From an uncultured bacterium (GTDB lineage Bacteria; UBP7; UBA6624), in assembly GCA_964012435.1 (NCBI GenBank), contig CAXGSM010000002.1, forward strand, positions 634-64,633: a stretch of DNA of 64,000 nucleotides, written 5' to 3'. Below are positions 11,990 through 54,356 of this stretch, in pieces. The position numbers and the translations under genes are program-made. Position 1 is the stretch's first letter. Each line of letters opens with the position of its first letter. A model generated the notes under the pieces. It saw nothing but the letters and a program-made list of their open reading frames with translations. It did no database searches and was not told the origin of the DNA.

Positions 11990-12396
11990 AAACAAGATTT
12001 AAAAACAAGTCAGAAAACACAGAGTTAAAAATAGCCTGGACTCCTCTTATTGACATGGTTTTCATACTGCTTCTTTTTTTCGCCGTCACAACAACATGGG
12101 CTTCAAAAGAAGCCGGAATGAATATGGAACTGCCAAATGCTGGCTCAGGAACACAACAAAACAATAACCAAATAATTTATGTAGATGAATTAGGAAGAAT
12201 ATACATAAACAATCAAGACACACCGCTTTCAATTGCTGATTTCCTAAATGAACTAAACCGTTTTGAAAAAGATCAACCATGGGAAATAAGAGCTAACAAA
12301 GATGTTCCTTATGAGAAAGTTATTATTGTGCTTGACAACCTAAGAAAAGAAAAATACATGAATGTAATACTTGCGGTTGAACCTAATAGAAATTGA
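11986..12396 (+). CDS. ExbD/TolR-family biopolymer transport protein
   Basis: 136 aa. The TM segment TPLIDMVFILLLFFAV carries the conserved Asp. TTGA overlap with the upstream stop. The TTG start is forced because the next ATG is inside the TM. Confidence 0.85.
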   Translation: MKTRFKNKSENTELKIAWTPLIDMVFILLLFFAVTTTWASKEAGMNMELPNAGSGTQQNNNQIIYVDELGRIYINNQDTPLSIADFLNELNRFEKDQPWEIRANKDVPYEKVIIVLDNLRKEKYMNVILAVEPNRN

Positions 12397-20899: not shown

Positions 20900-21832
20900 T
20901 TAAATTTTATTGAATTTAAAAACTCGCAACTTTGCAGACCTGACTTGAGGCATTTTGGCTATCTCTAGCTGACTAGGCTGAATCGGTTTTTTTGTGACAC
21001 TCTCCCCAAAACCCATTCTTTCCATTTTTTTATAAAAACTCTTCACCTGTCTATCCTCAATACTATGCCATGTTAAAAAAATACCAATGCCACCCAGCTC
21101 AATCACTTCCGACATTGAATTAAGCAAGGAGTCAAGCTCTTGTGATTCTTTATTAACTTCTCTCCTCAGAGCCATAAAAACCTTTGTAGAAGGATGAATT
21201 CTTTTAACACCATTTTCGAAAAGAATTTTTGAAAGCTGGTTACATGGCATTGAAGAAATATTTCTGTTCCTTACAATCACATTTGAAATTCTTCTATAAC
21301 TCTTGATGCCGCTTTCTTTAAAAATCTTCCTCAATTGAGGCTCATTGTATGAATTTAATATTTCAGATGCTGTTAATGTATTTTCGTTTTTGTCAAACCT
21401 CATGTCGGCTTCTTCAGATCCGTTAAATGACATGTCTTCTCTATAAAGCTGATCTAACCTGGCTCCAAGATCAGCAAAAACAACATCACATTTTTTCCAA
21501 CCTATCTTTTCCATCATTTTTTTGATCTGGCTATGTCTCGATTGAAAACATTCAAATGAAGATTCGAAATTACCCAAATTACCTTGTGATAAATCTACAT
21601 TTTGAAAAACTTTAGCAAGTCTTTTTTCAGCTCTTTCGATCGCCTTTTTATCCATATCTATACCAAGAACAGAACATCCAGATTTCAAAAAAATTTCAGA
21701 ATGCCCTCCATCGCCTAATGTAGCATCAACGACCCTCAATGGAACTTTGTCGGAATAGTCTGAACAAAGAAGCAAAGAGTCAATAAACTCTTTAATCTCT
21801 TTAGTCATTGCAGAAGGATGGTAACTAGTCAT
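20900..21832 (-). CDS. rsmH: 16S rRNA (cytosine1402-N4)-methyltransferase RsmH/MraW
   Basis: HPSAMTKEIKEFI...VVDATLGDGGHSE...GIDMDKKAI matches the RsmH N-terminus. Start placed at the MTSYHPS ATG (21832), 8 nt overlapping the upstream PPC gene. The track start at 21862 is probably too long. Confidence 0.88.
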   Translation of the reverse strand: MTSYHPSAMTKEIKEFIDSLLLCSDYSDKVPLRVVDATLGDGGHSEIFLKSGCSVLGIDMDKKAIERAEKRLAKVFQNVDLSQGNLGNFESSFECFQSRHSQIKKMMEKIGWKKCDVVFADLGARLDQLYREDMSFNGSEEADMRFDKNENTLTASEILNSYNEPQLRKIFKESGIKSYRRISNVIVRNRNISSMPCNQLSKILFENGVKRIHPSTKVFMALRREVNKESQELDSLLNSMSEVIELGGIGIFLTWHSIEDRQVKSFYKKMERMGFGESVTKKPIQPSQLEIAKMPQVRSAKLRVFKFNKI

Positions 21833-22235
21833 GCCAAAGCCAAAGCCCCCTCTCCTTATCAAAAAATCTAACTTTTTGATTTAAAGATTGCATAACCATA
21901 AACTCACAAACAAACACTTTGCAACCTTTTAAAACATGCCCTCCGTAAGTTTGACCTTTTTTATCAGATAAGCTTATATGAAAATGAGGAAAAATATCAT
22001 CTTTAAAATTTGAATCAGATTTTAATGAAATATTCCCAGATAAAGAAACTATTTCTAAATCTTCACTAATAGAAATTTCCTCATATTTCTCTTCTTTTTG
22101 GTTGTACCAAGCTATATTTGCCTGCTTTAAAGCACCTATGCCAAAGATCCAACATGATTGAATTTTTCTATTTTTTGCAAAATCAAGCAAGGATTCAAGA
22201 AGATCACATCCATTTTTCAAAGAATACATTTTCAT
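21825..22235 (-). CDS. PPC (DUF296) domain protein
   Basis: GIGALKQANIAWYN...LEIVSLSGNIS...PHFHISLSDKKGQTYGGHVLKGCKVFVCEFMV fits the PPC/DUF296 pattern. 136 aa. Confidence 0.7.
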   Translation of the reverse strand: MKMYSLKNGCDLLESLLDFAKNRKIQSCWIFGIGALKQANIAWYNQKEEKYEEISISEDLEIVSLSGNISLKSDSNFKDDIFPHFHISLSDKKGQTYGGHVLKGCKVFVCEFMVMQSLNQKVRFFDKERGLWLWHD

Positions 22236-23176
22236 AACATAATATTCTCATTTAAAAATTTCAAAAAATCATCAGGAAGTTCCATTCTCCTAACCCTTAT
22301 CCAACAAGGGAAACCTTTTAAGCTCCATCTTGAAGCATCTTTTTTTGTGATGATTACACCGCCGTAAGATCTAGCATTCATGATAGCAAGATTCCTCCAC
22401 TTAGAAGAAACAGCATGATCAGGTATGTTTAGATTAAAACAATCAATACCCTCATCCCTCAGTTCCGCTTCCAAGTTTTTAGAATTTGCTATACCAGCAG
22501 CTAAAGGTAGCCGCATTGACGGAGGGTCTGTTGGCTCCCAATTCTCATTCAGCCAGCTATTCCCCTTTGATTTGATTTTAAATTTCTTAATAGAGGGTGC
22601 CCATCTTTTAATTTCTGAAAAATCTGCATTTGGCATCGAGAGCAAACAATCAGCACGAGAGTAAGAGCTTCCCCACTCTCTTAATAAACCTTTTGGAAAG
22701 GGTATCGATGCCTTATTGCTTGAAACGGAAACTATATTTAGGTCAACCTCTATTGATGACCACTGAAAACCATCTTCTAAAATAATGACGTCGCATCCAA
22801 TTTTAGATAACTCTTTACAAAGGTAATTTTTATCCTTCCCGATTGCAACAATCAAACCAGGAACTTCTTTCTTAATTAGACTCGCTTCATCTCCAGCTTC
22901 AACATTACAAAAATGTTGCCCAGGGCCAAAAATTTTATTATCCCAGTTTCTCTTGCCCCCATAACCCAAAACAACAATTCCTACATTTTTACGCTTTTCT
23001 AATAAATATTTTGAAATTAATATAGAAATTGGTGTTTTTCCTGCTCCACCTGCTTGAACAGAGCCAATACTAATAACTTTAGAAGAAAGCCTGGATGGCC
23101 TTTTCCCATGATGCCTTCGTAATAATTCCCTCAAGAAAGAATAAAAAATTTCCATTAATCCAGTTTTTTTCATCAA
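22232..23176 (-). CDS. lpxK: tetraacyldisaccharide 4'-kinase
   Basis: P-loop context VISIGSVQAGGAGKTP is characteristic of LpxK. 314 aa. Confidence 0.85.
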   Translation of the reverse strand: MMKKTGLMEIFYSFLRELLRRHHGKRPSRLSSKVISIGSVQAGGAGKTPISILISKYLLEKRKNVGIVVLGYGGKRNWDNKIFGPGQHFCNVEAGDEASLIKKEVPGLIVAIGKDKNYLCKELSKIGCDVIILEDGFQWSSIEVDLNIVSVSSNKASIPFPKGLLREWGSSYSRADCLLSMPNADFSEIKRWAPSIKKFKIKSKGNSWLNENWEPTDPPSMRLPLAAGIANSKNLEAELRDEGIDCFNLNIPDHAVSSKWRNLAIMNARSYGGVIITKKDASRWSLKGFPCWIRVRRMELPDDFLKFLNENIML

Positions 23177-23302: not shown

Positions 23303-23818
23303 TTGAAGAAAATGGCAATTATTGGCACACAAATCACAATCGACAAAAATGGCAGATTCGTCGTCCCTTCTGATAAAAGAAGAATTTTTGATGAATTAAA
23401 AAATATCATCGTTGTTCTAGATGATGCAGATGAAATAAGACGTAGAGTTTTAATTTACTCTGGAAAAAGTCATTTAACTCATTTAAATCATTTAAGAAAT
23501 CTTGCTTCGGAAGGTTTTGTTACAAAATCTGGCGAAAGGCTAACGAAAGCAGAAAGCTTGAGGATTGTTTCAATGTACGAAGAAAACGCTATTGTTAGAA
23601 GAATAGATCCATCTGGAAGAGTGTCATTACCTTTAGAAGTTCTTGGATTAGCGGGAATTAAAGATATTGCATATATTGGAGGAGTGCAAAGAATTGCACT
23701 TTACTCTCCCCCAATATGGAAGCAACTTGTCGAAGAGAGGGAGCATCTATTGAAATCTCTCAGCTACGAACAAAGAGTTGAATTAGCCGAAATACCCTTC
23801 GAGGGCCATGTTGAATAA
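23303..23818 (+). CDS. mraZ: division/cell-wall cluster transcriptional regulator MraZ
   Basis: Two SpoVT/AbrB-type half-domains with DxxxR-like motifs (DKNGRFVVPS and DPSGRVSLPLEVL). Start is TTG at 23303 or ATG at 23312. Confidence 0.88.
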   Translation: MKKMAIIGTQITIDKNGRFVVPSDKRRIFDELKNIIVVLDDADEIRRRVLIYSGKSHLTHLNHLRNLASEGFVTKSGERLTKAESLRIVSMYEENAIVRRIDPSGRVSLPLEVLGLAGIKDIAYIGGVQRIALYSPPIWKQLVEEREHLLKSLSYEQRVELAEIPFEGHVE

Positions 23819-23844
23819 AAAAAATATGCTGAAAAGGAGGCATT

Positions 23845-23958
23845 ATGAACAATAACAGAAAACCAGGAGCATTAGATTTCTTTTTTGAACTACTAGTTCC
23901 TGTATTTTTTCTAGTAATACTAACTGGTTACTTCATTGTTTCAACACTAGTTGTTTAA
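23845..23958 (+). CDS. micro-ORF, 37-aa single-pass membrane peptide
   Basis: AAGGAGG at 23834-23840 lies 4 nt before the ATG. Translation is MNNNRKPGALDFFFELLVPVFFLVILTGYFIVSTLVV. Not in the ORF track (under 60 aa). Occupies the ftsL/ftsI slot. Confidence 0.5.
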   Translation: MNNNRKPGALDFFFELLVPVFFLVILTGYFIVSTLVV

Positions 23959-24062
23959 TGGTGGAAAATATACCAAAATGGGCTACAACGATAGTCGTTG
24001 GGACTATTGTTGCAAGCGGAATTCTCTTCCTGGCAGGGTCAATCATGGAGGCTTTAATTTAA
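23958..24062 (+). CDS. micro-ORF, 34-aa single-pass membrane peptide
   Basis: TAATG overlap with the preceding micro-ORF, and its stop abuts the murE TTG start. Translation is MVENIPKWATTIVVGTIVASGILFLAGSIMEALI. Confidence 0.4.
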   Translation: MVENIPKWATTIVVGTIVASGILFLAGSIMEALI

Positions 24063-25490
24063 TTGCAAATACAAAAATTAATCTCCACGATTGACTGTCT
24101 ATATCAAGGCGATCTTAATAGTCAAGTTTCAAAAATAAAAGAAGATTCCAGAAAAGTTCAAAAAAGAGATATATTTATAACGCATGCGGGCGTACGCGCA
24201 CACGCAATAGAAGCACAGCAAAGAGGTGCGTCAGCAATACTTAGTCCAGTATTCTTTAGAGATCTTAGAGTAAATCAAATAATCGGAGACACAGCAAGGT
24301 CAAAAAAAGATCTGATCAAAAATCTTTACAAAGAAACAATAAAAAACATAAAAATTATCGGAATCACTGGTACAGATGGAAAAACAACAACCTCAATGCT
24401 TACAAACAGCATCATCAATGAATCAAAAAAATCAGCTTCTATAGGCACACTAGGTGTAAAAGGTAACGATATCAATATCAAAACACAATTAACCACACCT
24501 CAAACTTCTGACTTGCTAAACACTTTAAATAAGTTGTACGAAAAAAAATATGAATATGCAGTTATTGAATGTTCATCACATGGTTTATTTCAGGACAGAA
24601 TAGATCCAATTAAGCTAAAGGCTGCTGCAATCAACAGGGTAACCAGGGATCATTTAGATTTTCATGGAAATCAAAAATACTACTTCAAAGCAAAATCTCT
24701 GATTTTTTCAAAATTAAATAACGGCTCACCTGCAATAATTAACTCAAGCTCTCCATGGCTTGAAGCATTGCAAAAAAAATATCCGAAACTCAATTGGATA
24801 ACATGGGGTAGAGAGAAAGGAGATGTAGTTGGAAAAGTCGTTTCCAAAACATTAACAAAATCAATTATCCAAATCAATCTTCCTGAAAGAAAAAATATCG
24901 AAGTGGAAACAAACCTTGTAGGTGATTTCCAAATAGAAAACATACTTACATCTATATCTTTATGTTATAGCCTTGGTTTTTCTGAATCTGAGATGGTAAA
25001 CGGAATATACGGTTTAAAAAACATACCTGGAAGAATGCAAAAAATAAAAAATGAAAAAACAAATGTATTTATTGATTATGCTCACACACCAAATGCAATA
25101 AAAAATTCAATTCAATCATTAAAAAAAATATGTAAAGGAAGAGTCTTTGCTGTGTTTGGATGTGGTGGAGATAGAGACAAGGGCAAAAGGCCCGAAATGA
25201 TGAAAGCAGGGATGAATGCAGATAAATTATTTATCACGTCAGATAACCCCAGAACAGAAAATCCAGATTCAATAATTAAAGACATGTTGAAAAATTACAA
25301 GCATGCAAAAAGAATTGAAGTTGAAAAAGATAGAAAAAAAGCAATTGAAAGTGCAATTCAATCAGCAAAGAAAGATGATGTTGTACTTATTGCAGGAAAA
25401 GGTCATGAAGAACATCAGATAATTGGTGAAGTAAAGAAGCCTCATAATGATTTGCTTTTCGCTAAGGAGGTTCTTGCAAGTTGCGCCTAA
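24063..25490 (+). CDS. murE: UDP-N-acetylmuramoyl-L-alanyl-D-glutamate--2,6-diaminopimelate ligase
   Basis: GITGTDGKTTT P-loop and the DNPR motif (TSDNPRTENP) typical of meso-DAP-adding MurE. 475 aa. Confidence 0.92.
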   Translation: MQIQKLISTIDCLYQGDLNSQVSKIKEDSRKVQKRDIFITHAGVRAHAIEAQQRGASAILSPVFFRDLRVNQIIGDTARSKKDLIKNLYKETIKNIKIIGITGTDGKTTTSMLTNSIINESKKSASIGTLGVKGNDINIKTQLTTPQTSDLLNTLNKLYEKKYEYAVIECSSHGLFQDRIDPIKLKAAAINRVTRDHLDFHGNQKYYFKAKSLIFSKLNNGSPAIINSSSPWLEALQKKYPKLNWITWGREKGDVVGKVVSKTLTKSIIQINLPERKNIEVETNLVGDFQIENILTSISLCYSLGFSESEMVNGIYGLKNIPGRMQKIKNEKTNVFIDYAHTPNAIKNSIQSLKKICKGRVFAVFGCGGDRDKGKRPEMMKAGMNADKLFITSDNPRTENPDSIIKDMLKNYKHAKRIEVEKDRKKAIESAIQSAKKDDVVLIAGKGHEEHQIIGEVKKPHNDLLFAKEVLASCA

Positions 25491-26842
25491 ACCCCCACAG
25501 TATAGCAAAAGCTTTGCAAACAAAAGGCAAAGGGCAAATGCCGACTGATGATCTTTACATAACTAATGATTCAAGAAAAATAAAACAAAATTCTTTATTT
25601 GTTGCAATAGCTGGCAAAAAAACAAATGGTACAGAGTTTATCAAACAAGCAATACAAAAAGGGGCTTCAGCAATAATTTCAAATAAAAAATTAGACCTTG
25701 GCAAAAAGATATGGTTATTGAACTCTGAAGACCCACAAGCCGCATATGGAAAACTAGCGAATAGAGCAAGGAAAGAATGGAATCAAAATGTCATTGGCAT
25801 AACAGGGTCTGTAGGCAAATCAACAATCAAAGATTTAACTGCCGCAGCACTTGGAACAGCTGATGATGTTGTCGCTTCACCCTACTCCTTTAATAATGAA
25901 ATTGGGCTTCCCTATTCAATACTGAATGCAAAAGGTACAGAAAAATATATGGTTCTTGAAATGGGTGCAAAAAATCCGGGAGATATCAACTACCTAAAAA
26001 AAATTGCAGAACCAGATTGTGCGGTCTATTCCCTCATATGCAACAGCCATGCAGAATACCTAGGTGGTATAGAGGGAGTGATCAAAGAAAAAGGTTCATT
26101 GGTTTCCGGCTGGGGAGAAAATAAAACCTTAGTAATATCGTCAAAAAACAATCACCATCAAGAAATATCTAGACTTTCATCTGGTGCAAAAATAGTCAAA
26201 TGGGGACCTGGTGAAGAAATCAGCTCTAAAGAGGTTAAATTAGACAAATATGGAATTCCTAACTTCAAGATCAAATACAAAAATAAAATATATAAAGTTA
26301 ACTTAAGACTACCAGGTTCTTTTCAGGTTGAAAACTCTTTAGCAGCATTGTCTACAGCTGTTAGCTTCAATATTGATTTAAATGACGCCATAACAAGAAT
26401 AGAAAAAGTTAAACCTCTTCCACACAGAAAAGAAATATATGCGATAAGCAATGATGGAGTTTTGCTAGATGATTGTTACAACGCAGGTGTGAAATCAACA
26501 AGCGAAAGTATCAAATGGGCTTCTTCAATATCTGCTAAAAGACCAAAAATAATGATACTTGGAGATATTTTAGAAACCGGCAAAGATGAAATAAAAATGC
26601 ATAAAAAAATTGGAAAAATAATTAAAGATAACAAATATTCTGAATTTTTAACAGTTGGAAATTTAGCAAAATATGCATTAGAGGAGTCAAGAATAAGTGG
26701 AAAACACTACCCTACAACTGATGATCTTTTGGATGATTTAAAAAAATATGACTTTTCAGCAAAAGTTACACTGGTAAAAGGCTCAAGATCAATGCAGCTT
26801 GAAAAAATTACAAAAAAAATTAGGGAGATTTTTTCTACGTAA
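25481..26842 (+). CDS. murF: UDP-N-acetylmuramoyl-tripeptide--D-alanyl-D-alanine ligase
   Basis: ITNDSRKIKQNSLFVAIAGKKTNG, GITGSVGKST, and its position after murE. Confidence 0.9.
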   Translation: MRLNPHSIAKALQTKGKGQMPTDDLYITNDSRKIKQNSLFVAIAGKKTNGTEFIKQAIQKGASAIISNKKLDLGKKIWLLNSEDPQAAYGKLANRARKEWNQNVIGITGSVGKSTIKDLTAAALGTADDVVASPYSFNNEIGLPYSILNAKGTEKYMVLEMGAKNPGDINYLKKIAEPDCAVYSLICNSHAEYLGGIEGVIKEKGSLVSGWGENKTLVISSKNNHHQEISRLSSGAKIVKWGPGEEISSKEVKLDKYGIPNFKIKYKNKIYKVNLRLPGSFQVENSLAALSTAVSFNIDLNDAITRIEKVKPLPHRKEIYAISNDGVLLDDCYNAGVKSTSESIKWASSISAKRPKIMILGDILETGKDEIKMHKKIGKIIKDNKYSEFLTVGNLAKYALEESRISGKHYPTTDDLLDDLKKYDFSAKVTLVKGSRSMQLEKITKKIREIFST

Positions 26843-26845
26843 CAA

Positions 26846-27892
26846 ATGAACATTTTTAATAAGCACTCTATTTTTTACACATTGTGCTTTTTAATAATTT
26901 TTAATTTTATTTTCAATCAAAATCTGCATAACAACATTCACATAAGTAATAATTTAAACTACCAAAATCTCTTAATTGGAATATTTATAATCACAATATT
27001 TTCATTTAATTCATACTTAAAAATCGCGGACAAAAAAGGCTGGGGTCAGTATGTAAGAGAGGAAGGGTTGGAATCACACCTTAAAAAAACAGGTACGCCA
27101 ACAGCAGCAGGTTGGATTTTTTTCGTGATGTCAATCGTTCCACTTTATATTTTTTTACCTAATTTTTTAATTGAAGAAAACATCCTATGGGTACCCTTGT
27201 TAGCAATAACGATAATGTTCATAACAGGCCTATTAGATGACTTATACAAAATAAACGGTAAAAAAGAGGGTCTTCTTGCAAGATATAGACTTTTAGCTCA
27301 ATTTTTAGTTGGCTCTCTTTTAGGGTATTACTTCCTACCTTGGGATTTATATACCAACTTAGCTGTTGGTTTCTTATTGTTTGGTACTGCCGTCAATGGT
27401 ATTAATTTTACCGATGGATCTGATGGTCTTCTGGCGGCAGTTATCCTTGCAACACCAATTGGACTTTTGATGCTTTATATAGTCTCTCAAGCAATGGGTG
27501 TAGGCTTTCCCATCGTAGGCTCTAAATTTATCTTTATCTTATTAGGTTTGCTGATGCTTTCATGGATACCTTTCAATAAACATCCTGCTAAATTATTTAT
27601 GGGTGAAACTGGCTCTTACACAATTGGGGCAATAGTGGGATTCATTGCAATATATTCACTGCAAAGCGAACCGATGGTTACTTTCTTGCTACTTTCTGTA
27701 CCTGTTTTTCAAATTACAACTGTTGTGATTCAGGTTTTCTTTTATAAAAAATTTGGCAAAAGAGTATTTTTAATGGCTCCGTTTCACCATCATCTTGAAA
27801 AAAAAGGATGGAGCGAAAACAAGATAGCTTATTCAGCTTTCTTTTTTCAATTATTTTTAACTATCTCATTAATAGGAAGTGTTACCTACTGA
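26846..27892 (+). CDS. mraY: phospho-N-acetylmuramoyl-pentapeptide transferase
   Basis: GTPTAAG, LLDDLYKI, NGINFTDGSDGL and APFHHHLEKKGW. The FMGDxGS motif reads FMGETGS here. Confidence 0.9.
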   Translation: MNIFNKHSIFYTLCFLIIFNFIFNQNLHNNIHISNNLNYQNLLIGIFIITIFSFNSYLKIADKKGWGQYVREEGLESHLKKTGTPTAAGWIFFVMSIVPLYIFLPNFLIEENILWVPLLAITIMFITGLLDDLYKINGKKEGLLARYRLLAQFLVGSLLGYYFLPWDLYTNLAVGFLLFGTAVNGINFTDGSDGLLAAVILATPIGLLMLYIVSQAMGVGFPIVGSKFIFILLGLLMLSWIPFNKHPAKLFMGETGSYTIGAIVGFIAIYSLQSEPMVTFLLLSVPVFQITTVVIQVFFYKKFGKRVFLMAPFHHHLEKKGWSENKIAYSAFFFQLFLTISLIGSVTY

Positions 27893-29082
27893 TGAAAACA
27901 CTTATTTACGGTATGGGGATAAGTGGTAAATCGGCTGCTGAATACTTGGAGAGGAAAAAAGAAAAAATTGTTGTTTATGACGATAATAAAAAATCAAAAA
28001 AATACATGAACTGGAATCAAGATCTCTCTAATATCAAGGCAATAGTTGCTTCTCCTGGAATACGCTCTACAAATCCAATTTTAAAAAAAGCTCAAGATTT
28101 AAACATACCGATACACTGTGATATTGGGCTTGTATCTTTTGAAAAAAAATTACCAAAAATAATTTCCGTAACTGGAACTGCTGGAAAAACAACACTTGTA
28201 AGCTTGCTTGTAGATGTTTTAAATGCAGATGGGGAAAAATCAATAGCATTAGGAAACTATGGTCTTTCTCCCTTGGATGTATTGAAAAATAATTATAAAT
28301 ATTGGGTAATAGAGGTTTCAAGTTTTCAATCAAAAAGACTGGCTTTCCTGAAACCAAACATAGGTATCTATTTAAATCTCTCACAAAATCATCTTGACTG
28401 GCATGAAACAATCGAAGATTACAAAATCTGCAAAGGAACAATTTTCAAAAACCAGGATTCTAATGATTTGAGAATAGTAAACCCTGATCTTGAAAAAAAA
28501 TACATAACAGGCAAAGCAAAAGAAAAAGAAATAAAGAAAAATGAATTTTCAAACCTAAGAGAAGATATTCATGAAGACACTTTATCTACTCTTGGCTTAT
28601 GCATAAAAGAATTAAATCTAAATCACAATATAGCAAAACAATCAGTCATGAACTTTAAAACATTAATGCATAGATATCAAAAAATCAATACAAACGATGG
28701 AATTCATTGGATTAATGATTCAAAAGCAACAACACCTCTTGCCACATTGACAGCTATAGAAAGAACTCCTGCTGGATCAATAGTCTTAATGGGGGGAAGC
28801 GACAAAGACCTTAGCTATAAAAAAACATTAGAAAAGATAAAAAAGAAAAAAATGAAATTAATACCATTTGGAGATATATCTCATGCACTACATGAAGAAG
28901 CAAACAAGCTTTCAGTAGATTCTTCAAAACCATGTGAATCATTAAAAAAAGCAATTCAAAAAGCGAAAAATAACGGAAAAGGAAAAACCATATTGTTATC
29001 CCCAGGAACGGCAAGTTTTGACGAATTTGCAGGCTATGAACAAAGAGGAATGTACTTTATCGAAAAAATAAAAGGAGGTTGA
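27892..29082 (+). CDS. murD: UDP-N-acetylmuramoylalanine--D-glutamate ligase
   Basis: MKTLIYGMGISGKSAAEYL and VTGTAGKTT. The ATG at 27892 overlaps the mraY stop (TGATG). The track start at 27808 lies inside mraY. Confidence 0.9.
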   Translation: MKTLIYGMGISGKSAAEYLERKKEKIVVYDDNKKSKKYMNWNQDLSNIKAIVASPGIRSTNPILKKAQDLNIPIHCDIGLVSFEKKLPKIISVTGTAGKTTLVSLLVDVLNADGEKSIALGNYGLSPLDVLKNNYKYWVIEVSSFQSKRLAFLKPNIGIYLNLSQNHLDWHETIEDYKICKGTIFKNQDSNDLRIVNPDLEKKYITGKAKEKEIKKNEFSNLREDIHEDTLSTLGLCIKELNLNHNIAKQSVMNFKTLMHRYQKINTNDGIHWINDSKATTPLATLTAIERTPAGSIVLMGGSDKDLSYKKTLEKIKKKKMKLIPFGDISHALHEEANKLSVDSSKPCESLKKAIQKAKNNGKGKTILLSPGTASFDEFAGYEQRGMYFIEKIKGG

Positions 29083-29084
29083 TT

Positions 29085-30491
29085 ATGGATAGTCAAAAAA
29101 ATATACACTTTATAGCAATGGGAGGAAGTGGCATGGAGCCGCTTGCCAGATGGTGCGCAGAAAAAGGATACAAGGTTTCAGGTTCTGATATTTCAGAAAA
29201 ATCAGTAAAAAAACTAACTGAACTTGGTTTTGACTGCAAGCTAAAACATTCGGAAGAGAATATTCCAGAAAATTGTAATCTTGTTGTTTATTCAAATGCA
29301 ATACCAGAAAACAATATAGAAGTTCAAGAAGCAAAACAAAGAAACATAACAAGATTGCATAGACCGATATTTCTTGCAAAACAATTTAACAAAGCAGAAA
29401 AAAGAATAGCTATAACTGGAACCCATGGAAAAACAACAACGAGCTCTTTAATATCATGGATTGTATATAAATCTGGAAGAGACCCCAATGTTCTTATTGG
29501 TGGAGAAATGCTTAATTGGAATGCTGGCTACAGAGTTGGAAATAATAAATACTTTGTTGTTGAAGCAGATGAAAGTAATCCTGAATTTGTCAATCTAGAC
29601 CCAACAACACTTGTTCTAAACAATCTAGACTGCGATCATATGGATACATACAGAACAATGGAAAATCTTGAAAGGTACATTACGGACTATTTAACAAGCC
29701 GTGATGAGAAATGCAATTTTGTAATGCCTAGAGAAAAAGGATTAGGAATGTCAAAAATACTTGAAAATAGCTCCATTAGACCAGGCAGCATCATTACAAC
29801 AGCTCTCATTGAAAGTGACAAAGAACTTGGGCAAGGAAGCATGGCTGATAGAGCATTGCTGGAAGGGAAAATAATTAGCGAAGGCGAAAGAGGGATGCTG
29901 ATGAGGGTTCTTTATTACGGCTTGCCTTTAGGTGAATTCTTTTTGCCTCTTTCTGGCAAGCATAACGCAAGAAATGTCCTTTCAGCAATTGGTGCGTGTT
30001 TAACATTAGGGATGGATGAAAATGAAATCTACGAAGGGTTAAGGTCTTTCAAAGGTGTAGGCAGAAGAATGGAAAGAATTGGAAACACTGCTGTAGGTGA
30101 AATTTTTTCAGACTATGCACATCATCCCACAGCGCTAAGAGAAACACTAAAAAGTATTAAAAGTAAATACAAAAACAAAAAAATTGGAATTGTTTTCGAG
30201 CCACATAGATATACAAGGTTACAAAAAACACATGAACAATTTTCAAATGTTTTAAATTCTTTTGAATTCAATCAAAAACTTATATTGCCAATCTATACAG
30301 CAGGGGAAAAAGAAATTGATGGAATTAGCAGTGAACTTCTTGTAAGCAATAATTCTGATTGCCAACTTGTTCAGCGAGAAGACATGATTGAAAATCTTGT
30401 AAATGGTGAAAATGACATAATTATTTTTCTAGGAGCGGGAAACATACATAAAATTGCTAATCAAACATTCCAGCTTTGTCAAATTAATTAA
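29085..30491 (+). CDS. murC: UDP-N-acetylmuramate--L-alanine ligase
   Basis: IHFIAMGGSGMEPLA and ITGTHGKTTT. AAGGAGG lies 6 nt upstream of the ATG at 29085. Confidence 0.92.
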   Translation: MDSQKNIHFIAMGGSGMEPLARWCAEKGYKVSGSDISEKSVKKLTELGFDCKLKHSEENIPENCNLVVYSNAIPENNIEVQEAKQRNITRLHRPIFLAKQFNKAEKRIAITGTHGKTTTSSLISWIVYKSGRDPNVLIGGEMLNWNAGYRVGNNKYFVVEADESNPEFVNLDPTTLVLNNLDCDHMDTYRTMENLERYITDYLTSRDEKCNFVMPREKGLGMSKILENSSIRPGSIITTALIESDKELGQGSMADRALLEGKIISEGERGMLMRVLYYGLPLGEFFLPLSGKHNARNVLSAIGACLTLGMDENEIYEGLRSFKGVGRRMERIGNTAVGEIFSDYAHHPTALRETLKSIKSKYKNKKIGIVFEPHRYTRLQKTHEQFSNVLNSFEFNQKLILPIYTAGEKEIDGISSELLVSNNSDCQLVQREDMIENLVNGENDIIIFLGAGNIHKIANQTFQLCQIN

Positions 30492-31360
30492 TGCTACAAA
30501 AATTCAAAGACTTTGATGGAAGAAATCTAACCACCTTCAAGATTGGTGGGAGGATAAAGAAACTTCTAATTGCATCAACTCTCAAAGAGCTAAAAGAAGC
30601 AATTGAAATTCTTTCGAATAAAAAAAGATGGCTGATTTTAGGTGCTGGAAGCAATGTTTTAATATCAGATAAAGGACTAGATGGAGCAATAAAACTAAAA
30701 GGAGATTTTTTGAAAATTACACATCATAACAATCTAGTATCTTGTGGTGGTGGAACGTTCGGATCAGCGGTAATCAAATATGCTGAAAATCAATCTTTAT
30801 CTGGAATGGAGCCATTTTCAGGATTGCCAGGAACGATTGGAGGATGGATAGCAACAAACTGCGGCCCAAAAGAAATGAATATTATTGACATACTCGAATC
30901 AGTTACAGTTATAAATAAAAAAACACTTCAAGTAAAAACACTTCAAAAAAATGACTTTGGATATGGCTATAGATATTGCTCGCTAAAAAATCAATACGGA
31001 ATAATAAAGGCCAACTTTAAATTACAAAATAAACAAAAAGAAAAAATAAAGCAAGAAAATCAAAAATTCATGAAATACAGATTATCAACACAGCCAAAAG
31101 GAAGCTCTGTAGGTTGTATATTTAAAAATCCCAAAGGTAAATCAGCTGGAAAAATAATAGATTCATGTGGGCTTAAAGGATTCAAGATTAAAAATTTACA
31201 AGTTTCAAAAACACATGGAAATTTCATAATAAATCAAGGAAAATCAAAAGCTGAAGATGTTTTTGAAATGATAGAAGCAATCAAAAAAAATGTATTCTCA
31301 AAAACAGGAATAAAACTAACTGCTGAAGTAGAAAAAATAGGACATTTTAAGCATGACTGA
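30491..31360 (+). CDS. murB: UDP-N-acetylenolpyruvoylglucosamine reductase
   Basis: TTFKIGG, GAGSNVLISD and the C-terminal GCIFKNP motif. 289 aa. TAATG junction with murC. Confidence 0.9.
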   Translation: MLQKFKDFDGRNLTTFKIGGRIKKLLIASTLKELKEAIEILSNKKRWLILGAGSNVLISDKGLDGAIKLKGDFLKITHHNNLVSCGGGTFGSAVIKYAENQSLSGMEPFSGLPGTIGGWIATNCGPKEMNIIDILESVTVINKKTLQVKTLQKNDFGYGYRYCSLKNQYGIIKANFKLQNKQKEKIKQENQKFMKYRLSTQPKGSSVGCIFKNPKGKSAGKIIDSCGLKGFKIKNLQVSKTHGNFIINQGKSKAEDVFEMIEAIKKNVFSKTGIKLTAEVEKIGHFKHD

Positions 31361-32351
31361 CAACCTCTTCGGAAAACAAGAAAAAAACAATCTAGATATA
31401 AACGTGAAAATCATTGCTTTAGGTGGTGCAGGATGCAAGATACTAAAAAGAATCAATAGCAGATTGCATAAAAGCATTCAAAAAGATGCAATAGACACAT
31501 CTATATCAAGCTTGAATAACCTTTCAGAAGATGTCAAAAAATACAACATAGCAGTAGATAGGTATGGAGGCAAAGGTACTGATTGTGATTATTACGGCTT
31601 AAAAGAATACCTTGTTGAAGACAAGATGGAAAATACAAAAATTGAAAAAACAGAAAATATTGATTTGATAATTTTCATATCCTGTTTAGGCTATGGTAGC
31701 GGATCAGCAATTCTTCCATGGGCGCTTGAACAGCTGGAACAATCTCTAGACCAACTTGGAAGAAAAACAATTAAGTTAGGTTTTTTCATCCAACCTACAG
31801 TAAGTGAAAATCCTGATTCTCTGGAGATAATTGATGACTCCTTGAAGCATTCAAATGACAAACTTGATTCTTATTTGATAATTTCAAATGACAAACTTTA
31901 CTCAAGCTTTCAAGGAACTTTGGAAGATGCCTTGCATAAAGCTGACTCCTGCCTTATGGAAATTATTGAGCTAATCATTGAGAACAATTACAACACTATA
32001 AATCTAGATAAAGCAAACATACTTGAGTTTTTCAGAAATGCAGGACAAATACATTTTGGACAAGGGAAATCAAAAGAAGAAACCATGATACATATGGCTA
32101 TTGAAGAATCATTTGAAGGAACACTCTTAAGACCTTTGCCAATCAACAAACCCCCTCATAGGGCTTTATGCTGGATAAATGGCCCTCCAATCAGTGCTTG
32201 CTTGCATCAAGAAATAGTAGAAAGTATTTCCTCAAGGTTATCTCCTGCCATAAACGGCAAGCAAGGAAAAATTAACATATCAATAAATACAATGAATCAA
32301 AAAATGCTTGAAATACATTTGATGCTCAGTAGCAAACAGGGAATTGCCTGA
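31353..32351 (+). CDS. highly divergent FtsZ/tubulin-family protein lacking a C-terminal tail
   Basis: Collinear by eye with the FtsZ core. T1 is IIALGGAGCKIL, the NTD-like region is AIDTS, and the G-box reads GYGSGSA (31689-31709). IISNDKL corresponds to IPNDKL. T7 reads NLDKAN (32001-32018). It lies at the end of the mur genes and before yggS. Confidence 0.65.
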   Translation: MTDNLFGKQEKNNLDINVKIIALGGAGCKILKRINSRLHKSIQKDAIDTSISSLNNLSEDVKKYNIAVDRYGGKGTDCDYYGLKEYLVEDKMENTKIEKTENIDLIIFISCLGYGSGSAILPWALEQLEQSLDQLGRKTIKLGFFIQPTVSENPDSLEIIDDSLKHSNDKLDSYLIISNDKLYSSFQGTLEDALHKADSCLMEIIELIIENNYNTINLDKANILEFFRNAGQIHFGQGKSKEETMIHMAIEESFEGTLLRPLPINKPPHRALCWINGPPISACLHQEIVESISSRLSPAINGKQGKINISINTMNQKMLEIHLMLSSKQGIA

Positions 32352-32352
32352 A

Positions 32353-32943
32353 ATGAAAATACCTTCAGGTGTAAGAATCATTGCGGCTGTAAAAAACAGA
32401 AATGATTCAGAGTTAGAAAAAATCCATTCAAAAGGTATACAAGATTTTGGAGAAAATAAATTACAAGAACATCTAAACAGGTCTGAAAAAATCAAAAGCA
32501 AAAATATAAATTGGCATTTCATTGGAAGGATTCAAATGAATAAAATTAAAAAAATATCCAAAGAATTCAAATTCATACACTCAATATCTAGATTTTCAGA
32601 AATCAAACAAATATCAAAACTAGGACCCCCTTATCCAACATGTTTAATTCAAATAAACCTAGGTGATAGTTCAAAATCAGGAATCAATCCAACAGACTTA
32701 AAGCCTTTATTAGACGTGTCAAGAAAAGAAAATCCTGAACTGCCGATTAAAGGTCTTATGACAATGCCTCCTTATACAACAAATCCGGAAGAAAATAGAA
32801 TGTGGTTTAGAGAGGTTAAAAAATTGGGTGAAGAAAATTTCAAAAAGCCATTATTGTCAATGGGAACAACTCAAGATTGGAAAGTAGCAATCTCTGAAGG
32901 TTCGAACATCATAAGATTGGGGAGGAAGATTTTTGAATTCTGA
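32353..32943 (+). CDS. yggS: YggS/YlmE-family pyridoxal-phosphate homeostasis protein
   Basis: IIAAVKNR (Lys for PLP), FGENKLQE, WHFIGRIQMNKIKKI, and C-terminal IRLGRKIF. Confidence 0.85.
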   Translation: MKIPSGVRIIAAVKNRNDSELEKIHSKGIQDFGENKLQEHLNRSEKIKSKNINWHFIGRIQMNKIKKISKEFKFIHSISRFSEIKQISKLGPPYPTCLIQINLGDSSKSGINPTDLKPLLDVSRKENPELPIKGLMTMPPYTTNPEENRMWFREVKKLGEENFKKPLLSMGTTQDWKVAISEGSNIIRLGRKIFEF

Positions 32944-33718
32944 ATGGATAGAACATTTAATACTTGGCTTAATCCAAGGAATTACAGAATTTTTACCAAT
33001 TTCATCTACTGGCCACCTTCTTCTTGTAAGAAACTTTTTTGGAATAAGTCCAGAATCAAATTCTGCTATCCTGACTATATTGCACCTTGGAACGCTTTTG
33101 AGCCTTTTGGTGGTTGAAGGTAAAAATTTAACTAAAATGATATTATCCAAGCATCCATTTCGCAATATTGAATTCCATGCAATATTCATAACAACACTTG
33201 CAACTTTGGTTTTTTATTTATCTTTTCAAAATTTATTTGAATCAAGCTTTCAAGATGCAGGAAGTGTTGCAATAGGTTTAGTTTTCACTGCATTTATTTT
33301 AGTTTATGCAGAATTAAGAAAATCAACATCATTTAAAAATCTGAGGCACACAACTTTTTTGGACTGGATCGCAATAGGTTTCCTGCAAGCAATCGCAATC
33401 ATACCTGGGGTTAGTAGATCTGGAGCAACAATAGCTGGGGGATTGCTCATTGGTATGAACAGATATGAGTCTGTTAAATTTTCTTTTATGCTCTCGATAC
33501 CAGTCATAATAGGAGCAACTCTCATAAAGCTGGAAAATATAGAATCGTATATTGCCGTTAATCCAGGACCTGCAATATTAGGATTTTTAACTGCTTTTTC
33601 ATTTGGGATATGGGCAATGAAGTTCATGTTAAATTATGTCAAAACAAATAAGCTTGAACCTTTTGCTATATATTGCTTGATATTAGGATTCCTTTCAATG
33701 TTGGTGGTAAATCGATGA
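32933..33718 (+). CDS. uppP: undecaprenyl-diphosphate phosphatase
   Basis: GLIQGITEFLPISSTGHL and PGVSRSGATI motifs. 261 aa and polytopic. TTG start (no in-frame ATG before the first motif). Confidence 0.9.
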   Translation: MNSEWIEHLILGLIQGITEFLPISSTGHLLLVRNFFGISPESNSAILTILHLGTLLSLLVVEGKNLTKMILSKHPFRNIEFHAIFITTLATLVFYLSFQNLFESSFQDAGSVAIGLVFTAFILVYAELRKSTSFKNLRHTTFLDWIAIGFLQAIAIIPGVSRSGATIAGGLLIGMNRYESVKFSFMLSIPVIIGATLIKLENIESYIAVNPGPAILGFLTAFSFGIWAMKFMLNYVKTNKLEPFAIYCLILGFLSMLVVNR

Positions 33719-35715
33719 AGCTAAAAATAAACCTAGAAACTTTTTTGATTTTATTCGTCATGTATCACACAATTGCAACAACAACACAAATATTAGATCC
33801 ACTATCAAAAAACTACAGAGAGTTATTTATCACTTTATGGGGAGTGAATTCATGGATTTACCCTTTGCTTCTTGTTTATCCCATCTTAAATTCAATTAAT
33901 GAAAAAAAATTCGCCAGACTTCTTTTGATTCCTTGGATTTTTTTACTTCTAGGGTCTGGAGATAATGCTGGCATATGGGGAAAAAAAATCTATTCTTTTG
34001 TGGAGGGCATAATTGACAAAGAAGGAATAATAATATTAAATACATTTACCTTTATTTCGATTGGTATTATCTACTTTGATCTAGATAAACATATAAAAAA
34101 TATCTTTCAAGACTTGTATAAAAAAAATAACTTCGAGAAAGATTTCAATTCTGGAAATTTTGAGAAAGATTTTGAATCATTAAAAAAGTCCAAAATAACA
34201 ACAAGCACCTTAGTTAAAAAGGATACGAAAAAGAAAGTTGCTCAAAAAACAAAAAGCCAAAAAAGCAACAAAAAAACAATTAAAAATCTAGAAAGTAAAC
34301 CAAGTTCAAAAGGGTACCATATACCAACAGAACTTTTACACAAACCAGAGCCAGTAATAGAAATGGGGATGCAAGAAGTAAAAGACATGGCTGACATAAT
34401 TATAAAAACCTTAAAAGATTGCGCTGGATCCGAAACATTTTATGAAAGCTGTGCTCAAGGACGTTCTGTTGTAAGGTTTGAATTTAGAGTTTCCCCATCT
34501 GCAAATTTATCAAAAATAAGAAGCTCTGCAGAAAATATTGCAGTAGCTATTGCAAGTGTAGGAAAGGTAAGAATAGAAGCACCTGTTATTGGAAAAAGCA
34601 CTATAGCTGTAGAGATACCTCAAAGAAATAAATCGATTTTAAGATTGAGTGAAGTTATAAAAAATCAAAAAAATGCAAATGGTTTAAATTTCATAATGGG
34701 AGCCCGAGTAGATGGAAGTCTATTTAATGTAGATTTAGCATCACTGCCTCATATGTTAATTGCAGGAGCAACACAATCTGGAAAATCAGTTTTTGTAAAT
34801 ACATTATTATTAAATTTGATATACAACAAAAGTCCAAAAGATCTAAAACTAATACTTGCGGATATGAAAAAAGTTGAATTGACTCTTTATAAAGATATTC
34901 CTCATCTGCTAGTTCCAATTGTATCAACTCCAGATCCAGCATTAAATGCATTAGATTGGGCAAGAGTAGAGGTTGATCGTAGATATGAATTATTGGAAGA
35001 GTCCAAAACAAAAAATTTAGAAGAATATAACAAAAAGTCTAAAAACAAACTCCCGTACATAGTTATAGTTTTGGAAGAACTTTCCGCACTTCTAATAACA
35101 TCCAAAAACAGAGTAATAGAATCCCTCTCTGATCTTTCAGAAAGAGCAAGAGCAGCAGGAGTCCATTTAATTGCAACAATGCAAAGGCCTGATTCAAAAA
35201 AACTAGACGGATCCGTTAAGGCTAACTTGCCTGGGAAAGTTAGTTTCAGGTTAGGAACAAGATCTGACTCAATAACAGTTTTCGGTAAGGGTGGAGCAGA
35301 GAACCTTTTAGGCAGAGGAGATCTTTATTTTGATAGTCCAACACACCCTGAATTAATAAGATGCCAAGCTCCATTGGTAGAAACAGAAGAAATAGAAAAA
35401 GTACTTGATTATCTAATTAAAAATTATGGTGAAGCTGAATACGACAAATCAGTTGAAGGCGAAGTGATAACACCAATAGATGAAATTAATGACGATATCT
35501 TGGAGGGCATGTCGAGCACTGATCGTCAGCTAATCAATGATATTAGACAAAGAATCAAAGATGAAGATGCAATAAGCGTAAGTCAACTTCAAAGACTTTT
35601 TGGTATTGGATACAATAAAGCATCAAGAATGATGATGATAATGGAACAATTAAACTGGGTTCATCAAGACCCAAATACATCAGCAGGCAAAAAAGGATGG
35701 GTGGTTGATCTGTGA
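33715..35715 (+). CDS. ftsK: DNA translocase FtsK/SpoIIIE
   Basis: 4 N-terminal TM helices and a K-rich linker. Walker A is GATQSGKSV and Walker B is VIVLEE. The C-terminal gamma winged-helix is SVSQLQRLFGIGYNKASRMM. The ATG at 33715 overlaps the uppP stop (ATGA). Confidence 0.9.
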   Translation: MKLKINLETFLILFVMYHTIATTTQILDPLSKNYRELFITLWGVNSWIYPLLLVYPILNSINEKKFARLLLIPWIFLLLGSGDNAGIWGKKIYSFVEGIIDKEGIIILNTFTFISIGIIYFDLDKHIKNIFQDLYKKNNFEKDFNSGNFEKDFESLKKSKITTSTLVKKDTKKKVAQKTKSQKSNKKTIKNLESKPSSKGYHIPTELLHKPEPVIEMGMQEVKDMADIIIKTLKDCAGSETFYESCAQGRSVVRFEFRVSPSANLSKIRSSAENIAVAIASVGKVRIEAPVIGKSTIAVEIPQRNKSILRLSEVIKNQKNANGLNFIMGARVDGSLFNVDLASLPHMLIAGATQSGKSVFVNTLLLNLIYNKSPKDLKLILADMKKVELTLYKDIPHLLVPIVSTPDPALNALDWARVEVDRRYELLEESKTKNLEEYNKKSKNKLPYIVIVLEELSALLITSKNRVIESLSDLSERARAAGVHLIATMQRPDSKKLDGSVKANLPGKVSFRLGTRSDSITVFGKGGAENLLGRGDLYFDSPTHPELIRCQAPLVETEEIEKVLDYLIKNYGEAEYDKSVEGEVITPIDEINDDILEGMSSTDRQLINDIRQRIKDEDAISVSQLQRLFGIGYNKASRMMMIMEQLNWVHQDPNTSAGKKGWVVDL

Positions 35716-35769
35716 AGAAAAAAATCAATACACAAACAATTAAACATGCTCGTATAGGGTTTTCGAAAA

Positions 35770-36654
35770 ATGGATCCTGATTTTTTCTCTTTAGGAAACT
35801 TCACAATAAGATGGTATGGCTTATGTATGGCTTCTACTGTGTTTATATCCTGGTGGTGGTCTAATAAATGGATAGAAAATAATAAAAAATCCGGTTTAAA
35901 CAAGAAAGATTTTGAGGATGGTTTGTTCTGGGCTGTTGTTTGGGGTATATTTGGAGCAAGATTAATCTACGTTTTAACGAATCTTTCTCAGTATCAAAAT
36001 TTAACTGAAGCAATGCAAATATGGAGGGGAGGCTTATCATTTCATGGAGCAATTGCTTTTGGTATTTTTTACTGGTCATTATGGGCAAGAAAAAGAAATA
36101 TAAAACTATGTAGGATATTAGACCTACTAGCTTATCCTTCAGCAATAGGTATCATTTTTGGCAGAATTGGAAACCTTATGAATGGAGATGATGCAGCAGG
36201 AAGGTTAACGAATTTGCCTATAGGTTACACATGGCCAGAAAAAGCATATGGCTTCTCAAGCTTTTGCCCTAACGCTGAAGAAACTATTGCTACATGTTCA
36301 GTCGAACTTGTGAGAGGTCCAGTTCACCTTTCTCAAGTTTACGGAATGCTTGTTGGGTTAATACTTTTTTTAATATTGTGGATAGGCACAAGACGCCCTA
36401 AGCATGAAGGATGGCTAACTGGTCAATGGTTGATATGGTACTCTCTATTAAGATCGGTATTAGAAGAACCTTTTCGAAATAATCCTATATACTGGCAAGT
36501 TTTTGAAAATAAAGAAATTGGCTTTTCGGTTTTCACATTAACTCAAATAGCCTCTTTCTTGATAATTGCAATAGGCCTTCTAGTGTTAAAAATGACACAA
36601 AAAAACGATACAAGCCCTTGGACAGGTTTTAATTATTTTAAAATTAAGGAATGA
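35770..36654 (+). CDS. lgt: prolipoprotein diacylglyceryl transferase
   Basis: IRWYGL, GGLSFHGA and GRIGNLMNGD motifs. Polytopic, 294 aa. Confidence 0.88.
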   Translation: MDPDFFSLGNFTIRWYGLCMASTVFISWWWSNKWIENNKKSGLNKKDFEDGLFWAVVWGIFGARLIYVLTNLSQYQNLTEAMQIWRGGLSFHGAIAFGIFYWSLWARKRNIKLCRILDLLAYPSAIGIIFGRIGNLMNGDDAAGRLTNLPIGYTWPEKAYGFSSFCPNAEETIATCSVELVRGPVHLSQVYGMLVGLILFLILWIGTRRPKHEGWLTGQWLIWYSLLRSVLEEPFRNNPIYWQVFENKEIGFSVFTLTQIASFLIIAIGLLVLKMTQKNDTSPWTGFNYFKIKE

Positions 36655-54312: not shown

Positions 54313-54356
54313 ATAAAATACCTCTTGTTTCTAAAAAAATCATTAATATAAAGTCT

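Follow-up and report, generated by a model that had tools for sequence, protein, structure and literature searches.

The accepted core of bacterial cytokinesis consists of FtsZ treadmilling, driven by the hydrolysis of guanosine triphosphate (GTP), and of tethering to the membrane through the C-terminal peptide of FtsZ. The gene considered here is an ftsZ-like open reading frame (ORF) that encodes a protein of 332 amino acids (aa) and lies on contig CAXGSM010000002.1, within a stretch of 64,000 nucleotides (nt) that was analysed as a whole and is hereafter called the window; its host is an uncultured marine bacterium of a deep lineage. Canonical bacterial FtsZ, i.e., the NCBIfam family TIGR00065 with the proteins of Escherichia coli, Staphylococcus aureus, and Aquifex aeolicus, is the closest described system, and the window protein resembles it in its two-domain fold, in its best sequence and profile matches, in the slot of its gene within the division and cell wall (dcw) cluster followed by yggS/ylmE, in the Asn and Asp that contact guanine, in the equivalent of the T7 residue D209, and in a conserved short N-terminal peptide. 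It differs in its score against the TIGR00065 ftsZ equivalog model (54.3 bits, where the cutoff is 295.2), in a core identity of 19% to the E. coli protein, in its altered T2, T3, T4, T5, and T7 loops, and in the absence of a linker, of a C-terminal peptide, and of an adjacent ftsQ or ftsA.

Other described members of the superfamily share some of these departures. The atypical FtsZ of Thaumarchaeota and Aigarchaeota, such as Nmar_1262 of Nitrosopumilus maritimus, has the G-box AGKAGSA where the window protein has GYGSGSA, and T7 is divergent in both (PMC3684127 and PMC5797428). The two are likened here by description only, and the thaumarchaeal protein belongs to Archaea in which a Cdv/ESCRT system, present alongside it, takes over cytokinesis, whereas the window protein is bacterial, is encoded in a peptidoglycan/dcw operon, and is accompanied by no alternative division system that we identified. 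Chloroplast FtsZ1, FtsZ1 and FtsZ3 of Agrobacterium, the D212N form of E. coli FtsZ, and beta-tubulin lack the C-terminal docking peptide and/or the second acidic residue of T7 and are reported to give stable or co-polymerising filaments; however, the natural variants are extra copies that work beside a canonical FtsZ, and D212N was made in the laboratory, while the window gene sits in the primary ftsZ locus and has no known partner copy. FtsZl1 and FtsZl2 are likewise divergent prokaryotic proteins in the FtsZ-tubulin superfamily; of these, the first has a coiled coil and an alpha-helical C-terminal domain, no alignable T6-H7 region, and a vWA/OmpA/GTPase gene context, and the second, which is proteobacterial, has an unrelated alpha/beta C-terminal region of ~300 aa and no conserved neighbours (PMC2875224). 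In contrast to both, the window protein combines, within 332 aa, a C-terminal subdomain of the normal FtsZ type with helix H7 and the T7 loop, and its gene lies in a dcw operon. The literature searched, the coverage of which was incomplete, describes no FtsZ from a bacterial dcw cluster that unites these features.

By position, the gene is orthologous to ftsZ, and we lean towards the interpretation that its product has left the canonical mechanism, in that it would bind GTP, hydrolyse it slowly or not at all, and not dock FtsA, SepF, or ZipA.

Regarding the family to which it belongs, the window protein is closest to FtsZ proper and not to CetZ, TubZ, tubulin, or FtsZl1. It matches the Pfam family Tubulin (PF00091, Tubulin/FtsZ GTPase domain) with 43.5 bits (E 5.8e-11, cutoff 33), and Pfam FtsZ_C has no match in the 332-aa protein. 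The TIGR00065 scores of other members of its family are similarly low (52–77 bits), against 310–472 bits for the canonical controls taken from the same searches, E. coli FtsZ from NC_000913 among them. When the protein was compared with the PDB by phmmer, the matches were FtsZ chains, the best being Aquifex 2r6r (E 1e-10, query residues 17–299), with query residues 17–300 covered overall, and a profile built from five family sequences returned FtsZ with E values from 1.6e-24 to 5e-15, CetZ with 6e-10 and 3e-8, TubZ with 0.12, and Asgard tubulin with 0.19. An AlphaFold2 model, built from an alignment of 84 sequences, has a mean predicted local distance difference test (pLDDT) of 90.2 and a predicted template modelling score (pTM) of 0.90; it contains every element of both FtsZ subdomains and reproduces the two-domain FtsZ fold, with the Rossmann-like GTP-binding domain, H7, and the C-terminal GTPase-activating domain. 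All 50 Foldseek matches listed from the PDB are FtsZ, and the best are filament-state structures of S. aureus FtsZ (SaFtsZ; E ~2e-22, template modelling (TM) scores of 0.77/0.83).

The candidate identities other than FtsZ were rejected on these and related grounds: CetZ, TubZ, and tubulin because the family profile favours FtsZ and the listed Foldseek matches are all FtsZ; FtsZl1 because the score of Pfam Tubulin_2 (PF13809), 13.4 bits, is below the cutoff of 27, the coiled coil is lacking, the C-terminal subdomain is of the FtsZ type, and the context is dcw; and FtsZl2 because the whole protein has only 332 aa and its operon is conserved. Since both fold and locus are those of FtsZ while several canonical sequence features fail, we class the protein as a highly divergent FtsZ variant or subfamily, and not as an ordinary member.

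The gene is located where ftsZ is expected, namely downstream of the mur genes in the order murE-murF-mraY-murD-murC-murB-ftsZl-yggS. The ORF starts with ATG, has AGGA ~10 nt upstream of the start, and overlaps by 8 nt both the end of murB and the beginning of a yggS/ylmE-type gene (PF01168, a pyridoxal phosphate protein); the whole run from mraZ to lgt forms a tight operon on one strand (Table 1). Moreover, the order murB-(X)-ftsZ-like-yggS-uppP-ftsK, in which X denotes an orphan gene discussed below, is kept in three deeply diverged lineages whose loci have a guanine plus cytosine (GC) content of 33%, 53%, and 74%. Co-translation with murB, yggS, uppP, and ftsK suggests that a role in organising peptidoglycan synthesis and division has been kept.

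Several genes that would be expected nearby are missing. None of ftsL, ftsI, ftsW, murG, ddl, ftsQ, and ftsA is present in the upstream dcw block (23303–31360), and ftsA, ftsQ, ftsL, ftsI, ftsW, murG, ddl, sepF, and zapA were not found across the 64-kb window by Pfam scans of ORFs of at least 150 aa, inspection of the small intergenic ORFs, and tblastn searches for which FtsA, FtsQ, and FtsZ of E. coli served as queries. The intergenic ORFs, among which zapA, sepF, and other small division genes were sought by eye and with no hidden Markov model (HMM) search, include only L28-, ExbD-, PCC-domain-, YqgF-like, and ferredoxin-like ones. When tblastn for a second ftsZ, for ftsA, and for ftsQ was extended to 269 kb, i.e., the 64-kb window plus related loci of at most 21 kb each, the only match was the FtsZ-like gene itself.

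These results bear on the proposal, in our opinion an unlikely one, that the gene is an accessory paralog, with a canonical ftsZ, accompanied by ftsA, ftsQ, or sepF, located elsewhere in the genome, and with the tail-less copy modulating or capping the real Z-ring. Tail-less or divergent extra copies of FtsZ are known, including chloroplast FtsZ1, the truncated extras of Agrobacterium, and the divergent second FtsZ of some bacteria of the candidate phyla radiation (PMC9871819); in addition, a dcw block without ftsW, ftsI, murG, ddl, ftsQ, and ftsA implies that at least some of these are encoded elsewhere. However, where a bacterium has two ftsZ genes, the additional one is reported to lie outside the dcw cluster (PMC9871819), which argues that a dcw-resident gene is the primary copy; here, each of the three deep lineages has the divergent gene in the ancestral slot, and no second tubulin-fold gene was found in the 269 kb.

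On all of these aspects the initial annotation of the window, made by eye, has been borne out: it had aligned the 332-aa protein along the FtsZ core, an alignment now recovered by phmmer over residues 17–300; it had placed the gene in the ftsZ position on account of the overlap with murB and of the yggS gene that follows, a slot found to be conserved in three deeply diverged lineages; it had reported no ftsA upstream, and none could be detected in the 269 kb that the window and the related loci make up. The checks that it proposed, i.e., placement against FtsZ, FtsZl, TubZ, CetZ, and tubulin, and prediction of the fold, led to FtsZ proper as the closest group and to a tubulin/FtsZ fold recovered by AlphaFold (pLDDT 90.2) and Foldseek. 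Its suggestion of a distinct subfamily also agrees with the phylogeny described next, i.e., with a monophyletic group on the longest internal branch of the tree, represented by three full-length clusters in 1.84e9 proteins.

The FtsZ-like gene is under strong purifying selection and is not decaying. The ORF is intact at full length on 13 independent contigs, among them five species-level metagenome-assembled genomes, to which a contig-end fragment (L018) is added. The pairwise ratio of nonsynonymous to synonymous substitution rates (dN/dS) is 0.03–0.11; for the window and L005, for instance, dS is 0.74, dN is 0.033, and omega is 0.045. Within the clade of the window, the identity of the protein is on par with that of its neighbours (93% versus 82–94%, and 75% versus 61–85%). 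The protein appears to be needed, because purifying selection is combined with operon coupling to murB, yggS, uppP, and ftsK. A decaying pseudogene or a chance ORF, at which the degenerate look of the motifs and the failure at the FtsZ equivalog cutoff (54 versus 295 bits) might hint, has a practically negligible probability, as it is refuted by the confidently predicted fold and by the dN/dS values, along with the intact ORF in the 13 contigs and the L018 fragment. For this reason, the word "degenerate" used in the initial annotation is apt for the motifs, which have drifted, but not for the gene.

The family is small. An HMMER search over 1.84 billion representative proteins found four with E < 1e-30, i.e., the cluster of the window protein, P0004, P0006, and one fragment, and beyond these the scores were at most 84 bits and belonged to ordinary FtsZs; just three full-length clusters at 50% identity therefore represent the family among the 1.84e9 proteins. 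A word-indexed homology search reached close relatives only, and the exhaustive profile search was needed for P0004 (L017, 53% GC) and P0006 (L011, 74% GC), both of which sit in the same locus. A neighbour-joining tree of 152 sequences recovers the family as monophyletic, on a stem (0.60) longer than any other internal branch (median 0.037). The tree offers no trustworthy sister group, the nearest sequence being P0133, itself aberrant. The mean identity to other FtsZs is 22%, compared with 34% among those others, and that to E. coli FtsZ is 18.7%. Canonical motifs are lost stepwise within the family: P0006 retains GGGTG (as GGGTGAA) and the second Asp of T7, P0004 has GGATGSA and a His, and the window clade has GYGSGSA and an Asn. 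By contrast, the change of D46 to Ser, the loss of R143, the change of G111 to Ala, and the loss of the tail are common to all members, and hence ancestral to the family.

A separate group of FtsZ-like proteins of 500–630 aa (P0018, P0038, P0080, P0108, and P0113) was met among the distant HMMER matches. It is characterized by a long N-terminal extension, the acidic nature of which was seen in P0018, P0038, and P0113, i.e., in each of the three that were read, by DTS in T2 (DTE in P0108), G(R/N/K)GTGS/T(A/V/T/S) in T4, a T5 without FxFEG, NLDYAD in T7, and PDFF or PDFM at the C-terminus, and it has some substitutions in common with the window family.

The nucleotide-binding and catalytic motifs were compared in an alignment with 150 other homologues and E. 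coli FtsZ, in a register on which MAFFT and HMMER agree; S. aureus numbering equals E. coli numbering plus one. In T1, GGAG and the Cys are common in ordinary FtsZs (Ala replaces E. coli G21 in 59 of the 150), and the sole unusual change is that of N24 to Lys, at a position that varies inside the clade (Lys, Gln, Asn, or Ala). The change of Asp to Ser in T2 is family-wide and recurs in 4/150 elsewhere, whereas neither the Asp at the G72 position of T3 nor the Tyr of T4 is found in any of the other homologues, 14 of which have Lys, Arg, or Asn in place of the latter; the replacement of the final Gly of T4 by Ala (G111 to Ala), again family-wide, occurs in two of the 150. T7 has only the first of the two acidic residues of the NxDxxD pattern, the second Asp being Asn in the window protein and His in P0004, whereas P0006 keeps it. 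Overall, five of the seven residues of the S. aureus protein that are critical for assembly or hydrolysis are replaced (D46S, Q48S, G72D, R143S, and D213N), and N208 and D210 are kept. Most of the residues with which canonical FtsZ positions the metal ions and the water shell around the gamma-phosphate of GTP, and with which it cleaves GTP across the interface between subunits, have thereby been exchanged. Concerning these motifs, the initial annotation had read the G-box GYGSGSA and the T7 loop NLDKAN exactly and in the right register. Its T1 motif GGAGCK was also exact, but the drift that it saw there reduces to N24, and its list of motifs, all of which have drifted, missed T2 (DTSIS), the Gly-to-Asp change of T3, T5 (PTVSENPDS), and G111 to Ala, which are the more serious ones.

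Other parts of the pocket are retained. The ribose-binding Glu152 of T5 is kept in the window protein, with Glu in 149/150 other homologues; the N165 equivalent and that of S. aureus D187 are invariant in the family alignment; and D219 (S. aureus D210) is conserved family-wide together with much of the T7/H8 region. The family-invariant columns are enriched in motif positions (19/55 versus 51/277, Fisher p = 0.011), so that the nucleotide pocket is still constrained in the family. Judging from these residues, the protein probably still binds a guanine nucleotide, either GTP or guanosine diphosphate.

The replaced residues have known functions in SaFtsZ, where D46 holds the water shell around Mg2+, Q48 locks K+ in the T7 loop, and G72 helps to hold the catalytic water; assembly is suppressed by any one of the changes D46A, R143Q, and D213N, and with either Q48A or R143K the GTPase activity falls ~6-fold and the polymers are stabilised (PMC8936486). 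E. coli FtsZ D212N has been described, and used, as a former of stable polymers (PMC12754632). From the substitutions and the published mutant data, we infer that GTPase turnover is altered or absent and that hydrolysis of GTP in the canonical mode has been lost. The D212-to-Asn change occurs alone in nature, given that P0010, an otherwise canonical FtsZ (TIGR00065 347 bits, C-terminal PSFLRRK), has the T7 loop NLDFSN.

The same substitutions may be explained by a non-polymerising pseudo-GTPase that no longer marks the site of division and has kept the fold for another role, e.g., regulating or scaffolding the enzymes that make peptidoglycan precursors, with division performed by other machinery. 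We consider this improbable, since D219 and much of T7/H8 are conserved family-wide and the gene remains tightly linked to ftsK and the mur genes in one operon; the predicted structure also hints weakly against it, because it is nearer to the open (T-state) filament structures of SaFtsZ (TM 0.77–0.83) than to the closed forms (0.66–0.75). Nevertheless, all three positions at which a single change suppresses the assembly of SaFtsZ (D46, R143, and D213) are altered here, the gene is the fastest-evolving of its locus at depth, and GYGSGSA is degenerate to an extent comparable with AGKAGSA, the G-box of a Nitrosopumilus FtsZ that, according to PMC3684127, does not polymerise in yeast; the same source cites the finding that Cdv proteins, and not FtsZ, are located at mid-cell.

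A further explanation is that of a fully functional, treadmilling FtsZ in which compensatory residues have rebuilt the active site, for example with Lys220 of T7 supplying the charge of R143 and Asp77 of T3 replacing D46, and in which the sequence alone, and not the mechanism, would be unusual. Strong purifying selection and the preferential conservation of the pocket are in line with it, and so is the finding that G72 to Asp, F210 to Lys, and D213 to Asn are found jointly in eight of eight sequences of the window clade, with other residues at each of these positions in the two deeper lineages. On the other hand, the putative compensating residues are not conserved in these two lineages, which are also devoid of D46, Q48, and R143, and the literature searched contains no experimentally characterised FtsZ with the same combination of changes, and for these reasons we hold this explanation to be quite unlikely. 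As for the polymer itself, a low-turnover polymer or scaffold is the option that we favour over the non-polymerising pseudo-GTPase and the rebuilt active site, at a probability of about one half.

As claimed in the initial annotation, the protein is tail-less. Its C-terminus reads LMLSSKQGIA, the model has its last strand ending at residue 326 out of 332, and there is neither a linker nor a (D/E)IPxFLR-type peptide, while many canonical matches in the same alignment end in peptides of the (D/E)IPxFLRK type. P0004 and P0006 have ~20 residues beyond the last strand, without an FLR-type motif. With no C-terminal peptide, the protein would not be expected to dock FtsA, ZipA, or SepF by that route.

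The other end of the protein is conserved. The N-terminal peptide (Table 1) is found in 10/10 family sequences, at identities of 28–93% (28% on the trimmed core alignment) and at 33–74% GC, the lone exception to its consensus being L008, with Glu for the final Gly. In the AlphaFold2 model residues 1–16 are a coil, and the pLDDT of the peptide is low. The peptide is kept behind murB as well as behind the orphan gene X, and dual coding does not explain its conservation, because the overlap with the upstream gene covers codons 1–3 only. ZapA is bound by a short motif at the N-terminus of E. coli FtsZ (PMC12754632), and this makes an N-terminal docking peptide plausible here.

If a polymer is formed, it would hydrolyse GTP very slowly or not at all, and the outcome would be a stable scaffold instead of a treadmilling Z-ring, by analogy with the non-catalytic T7 of beta-tubulin and with E. 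coli D212N. Coupling to the envelope would be achieved by means other than the C-terminal peptide, with the N-terminal MxxNLFG as the best candidate and, possibly, with the participation of operon partners, and the lineage may divide in an unusual way.

Six points weigh against this interpretation. The first concerns assembly: as single changes at three of the altered positions abolish it in SaFtsZ, the window protein may, by analogy, not polymerise at all. Second, at depth the FtsZ-like protein is the least conserved of the locus, with identities of 30–34% versus 35–59%. Third, the position of Glu152 is occupied by Ala in the L001/L009 subclade, which weakens the case for strict nucleotide binding. 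Fourth, neither zapA nor another known FtsZ partner is present in the window, and, fifth, the docking role of MxxNLFG is plausible purely by analogy. Finally, the search for a second ftsZ was confined to the 269 kb of the window and related loci, so that a canonical ftsZ, ftsA, or sepF may lie elsewhere in the genome, a point that also favours the accessory paralog.

A more far-reaching reading, which we regard as doubtful, takes the protein as the sole FtsZ of the lineage, hydrolysis-dead, not bound by FtsA or SepF, and docked in a new, N-terminal manner; it takes in a dcw operon that has shed ftsQ, ftsA, ftsW, and ftsI, as well as the orphan that sister lineages have in the ftsQ/ftsA slot. 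The lineage would then rely on a static, and not a treadmilling, scaffold or be a living intermediate between division driven by a Z-ring and division without FtsZ as in Planctomycetes and Chlamydiae. Returning to the positional ortholog that has left the canonical mechanism, a naturally selected, dcw-resident FtsZ without its tether and without most of the catalytic and crosstalk residues amounts to a natural experiment on the capacities of the FtsZ fold, be it as a static scaffold, as a regulator, or with a rebuilt active site. It may show a route taken by lineages toward FtsZ-independent division, and it flags a candidate N-terminal docking motif.

Table 1. Coordinates in the window of the FtsZ-like gene, of its motifs, and of the flanking operon genes
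Feature	Position	Strand	Remarks
FtsZ-like coding sequence	31353..32351	+	332 aa; ATG; AGGA ~10 nt 5'
N-terminal peptide MTDNLFG	31353..31373	+	Consensus M-x-[DE]-[NR]-L-F-G; coil before strand S1; candidate partner-docking motif
T1 loop GGAGCK (aa 24-29)	31422..31439	+	Canonical GGGGxN; E. coli N24 replaced by Lys
T2 loop DTSIS (aa 48-52)	31494..31508	+	Replaces NTDxQ; equivalents of S. aureus D46 and Q48 both Ser
T3 loop GGKGTD (aa 72-77)	31566..31583	+	Equivalent of S. aureus G72 is Asp
T4 tubulin signature GYGSGSA (aa 113-119)	31689..31709	+	Departs from GGGTG(T/S)G
T5 PTVSENPDS (aa 148-156)	31794..31820	+	Canonical PFxFEGxxR; both Phe, Gly, and Arg-finger-like R143 (S. aureus) lost
T6-H7 segment	31887..31946	+	Guanine contacts Asn179 and Asp198 kept; invariant in 10/10 family members
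T7 loop NLDKAN (aa 217-222)	32001..32018	+	Canonical NxDFAD; D219 kept, Phe replaced by K220, second Asp by N222
FtsZ C-terminal (GTPase-activating) subdomain	32043..32330	+	Assigned by fold; family signature PPHRALxW, RLSP; 6 residues after last strand
Upstream operon mraZ, murE, murF, mraY, murD, murC, murB	23303..31360	+	
murB	30491..31360	+	
yggS/ylmE-type gene	32344..32943	+	
Downstream yggS/ylmE, uppP (bacA), ftsK, lgt	32344..36654	+	Mostly overlapping genes

In the two sister lineages, the usual ftsQ/ftsA slot between murB and the FtsZ-like gene is taken by gene X, a pair of homologous orphans (L017:9163-10008, 281 aa, and L011:6370-7143, 257 aa; BLASTP E 8e-21). The window has no homologue of it, and there murB directly abuts the FtsZ-like gene. 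A cryptic FtsA or FtsQ was considered for gene X and rejected, as the hhalign probability is <1% and there is no match in Pfam or the PDB; gene X could be a new component of the divisome.

At the start of the operon, two tiny hydrophobic ORFs (23845-23958 and 23958-24062) stand between mraZ and murE and might be either remnants or small membrane proteins. In the window clade (20900-23176), rsmH/mraW is inverted, and between it and mraZ lie lpxK and a small ORF (21825-22235) that has a PCC-domain match in its L001 counterpart; in the 53% GC relative (L017:341-1823), mraZ and rsmH are adjacent and in the canonical order.

Regarding the host, the GC content of the window is 29–37% in 2-kb windows. 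The identity of its alanyl-tRNA synthetase is 100, 86, and 65–67% within the clade, then 47% and 44%, and then ~40% to many phyla, and an Rfam scan of the window found no ribosomal RNA and no other RNA family. Sizeable ORFs of 936, 718, 280, and 224 aa (54225-57035, 59544-61700, 3260-4102, and 45183-45857) have no Pfam match at E <= 1e-5, which fits a poorly sampled lineage. The LpxK, the TolC-like outer membrane efflux protein, the SurA-like protein, and the ExbB encoded in the window show that an outer membrane is present. Finally, a LysM protein, a 627-aa orphan, and an SLH-domain protein are grouped at 12393-15966; outer-membrane tethering of the SLH type is typical of diderm Terrabacteria.

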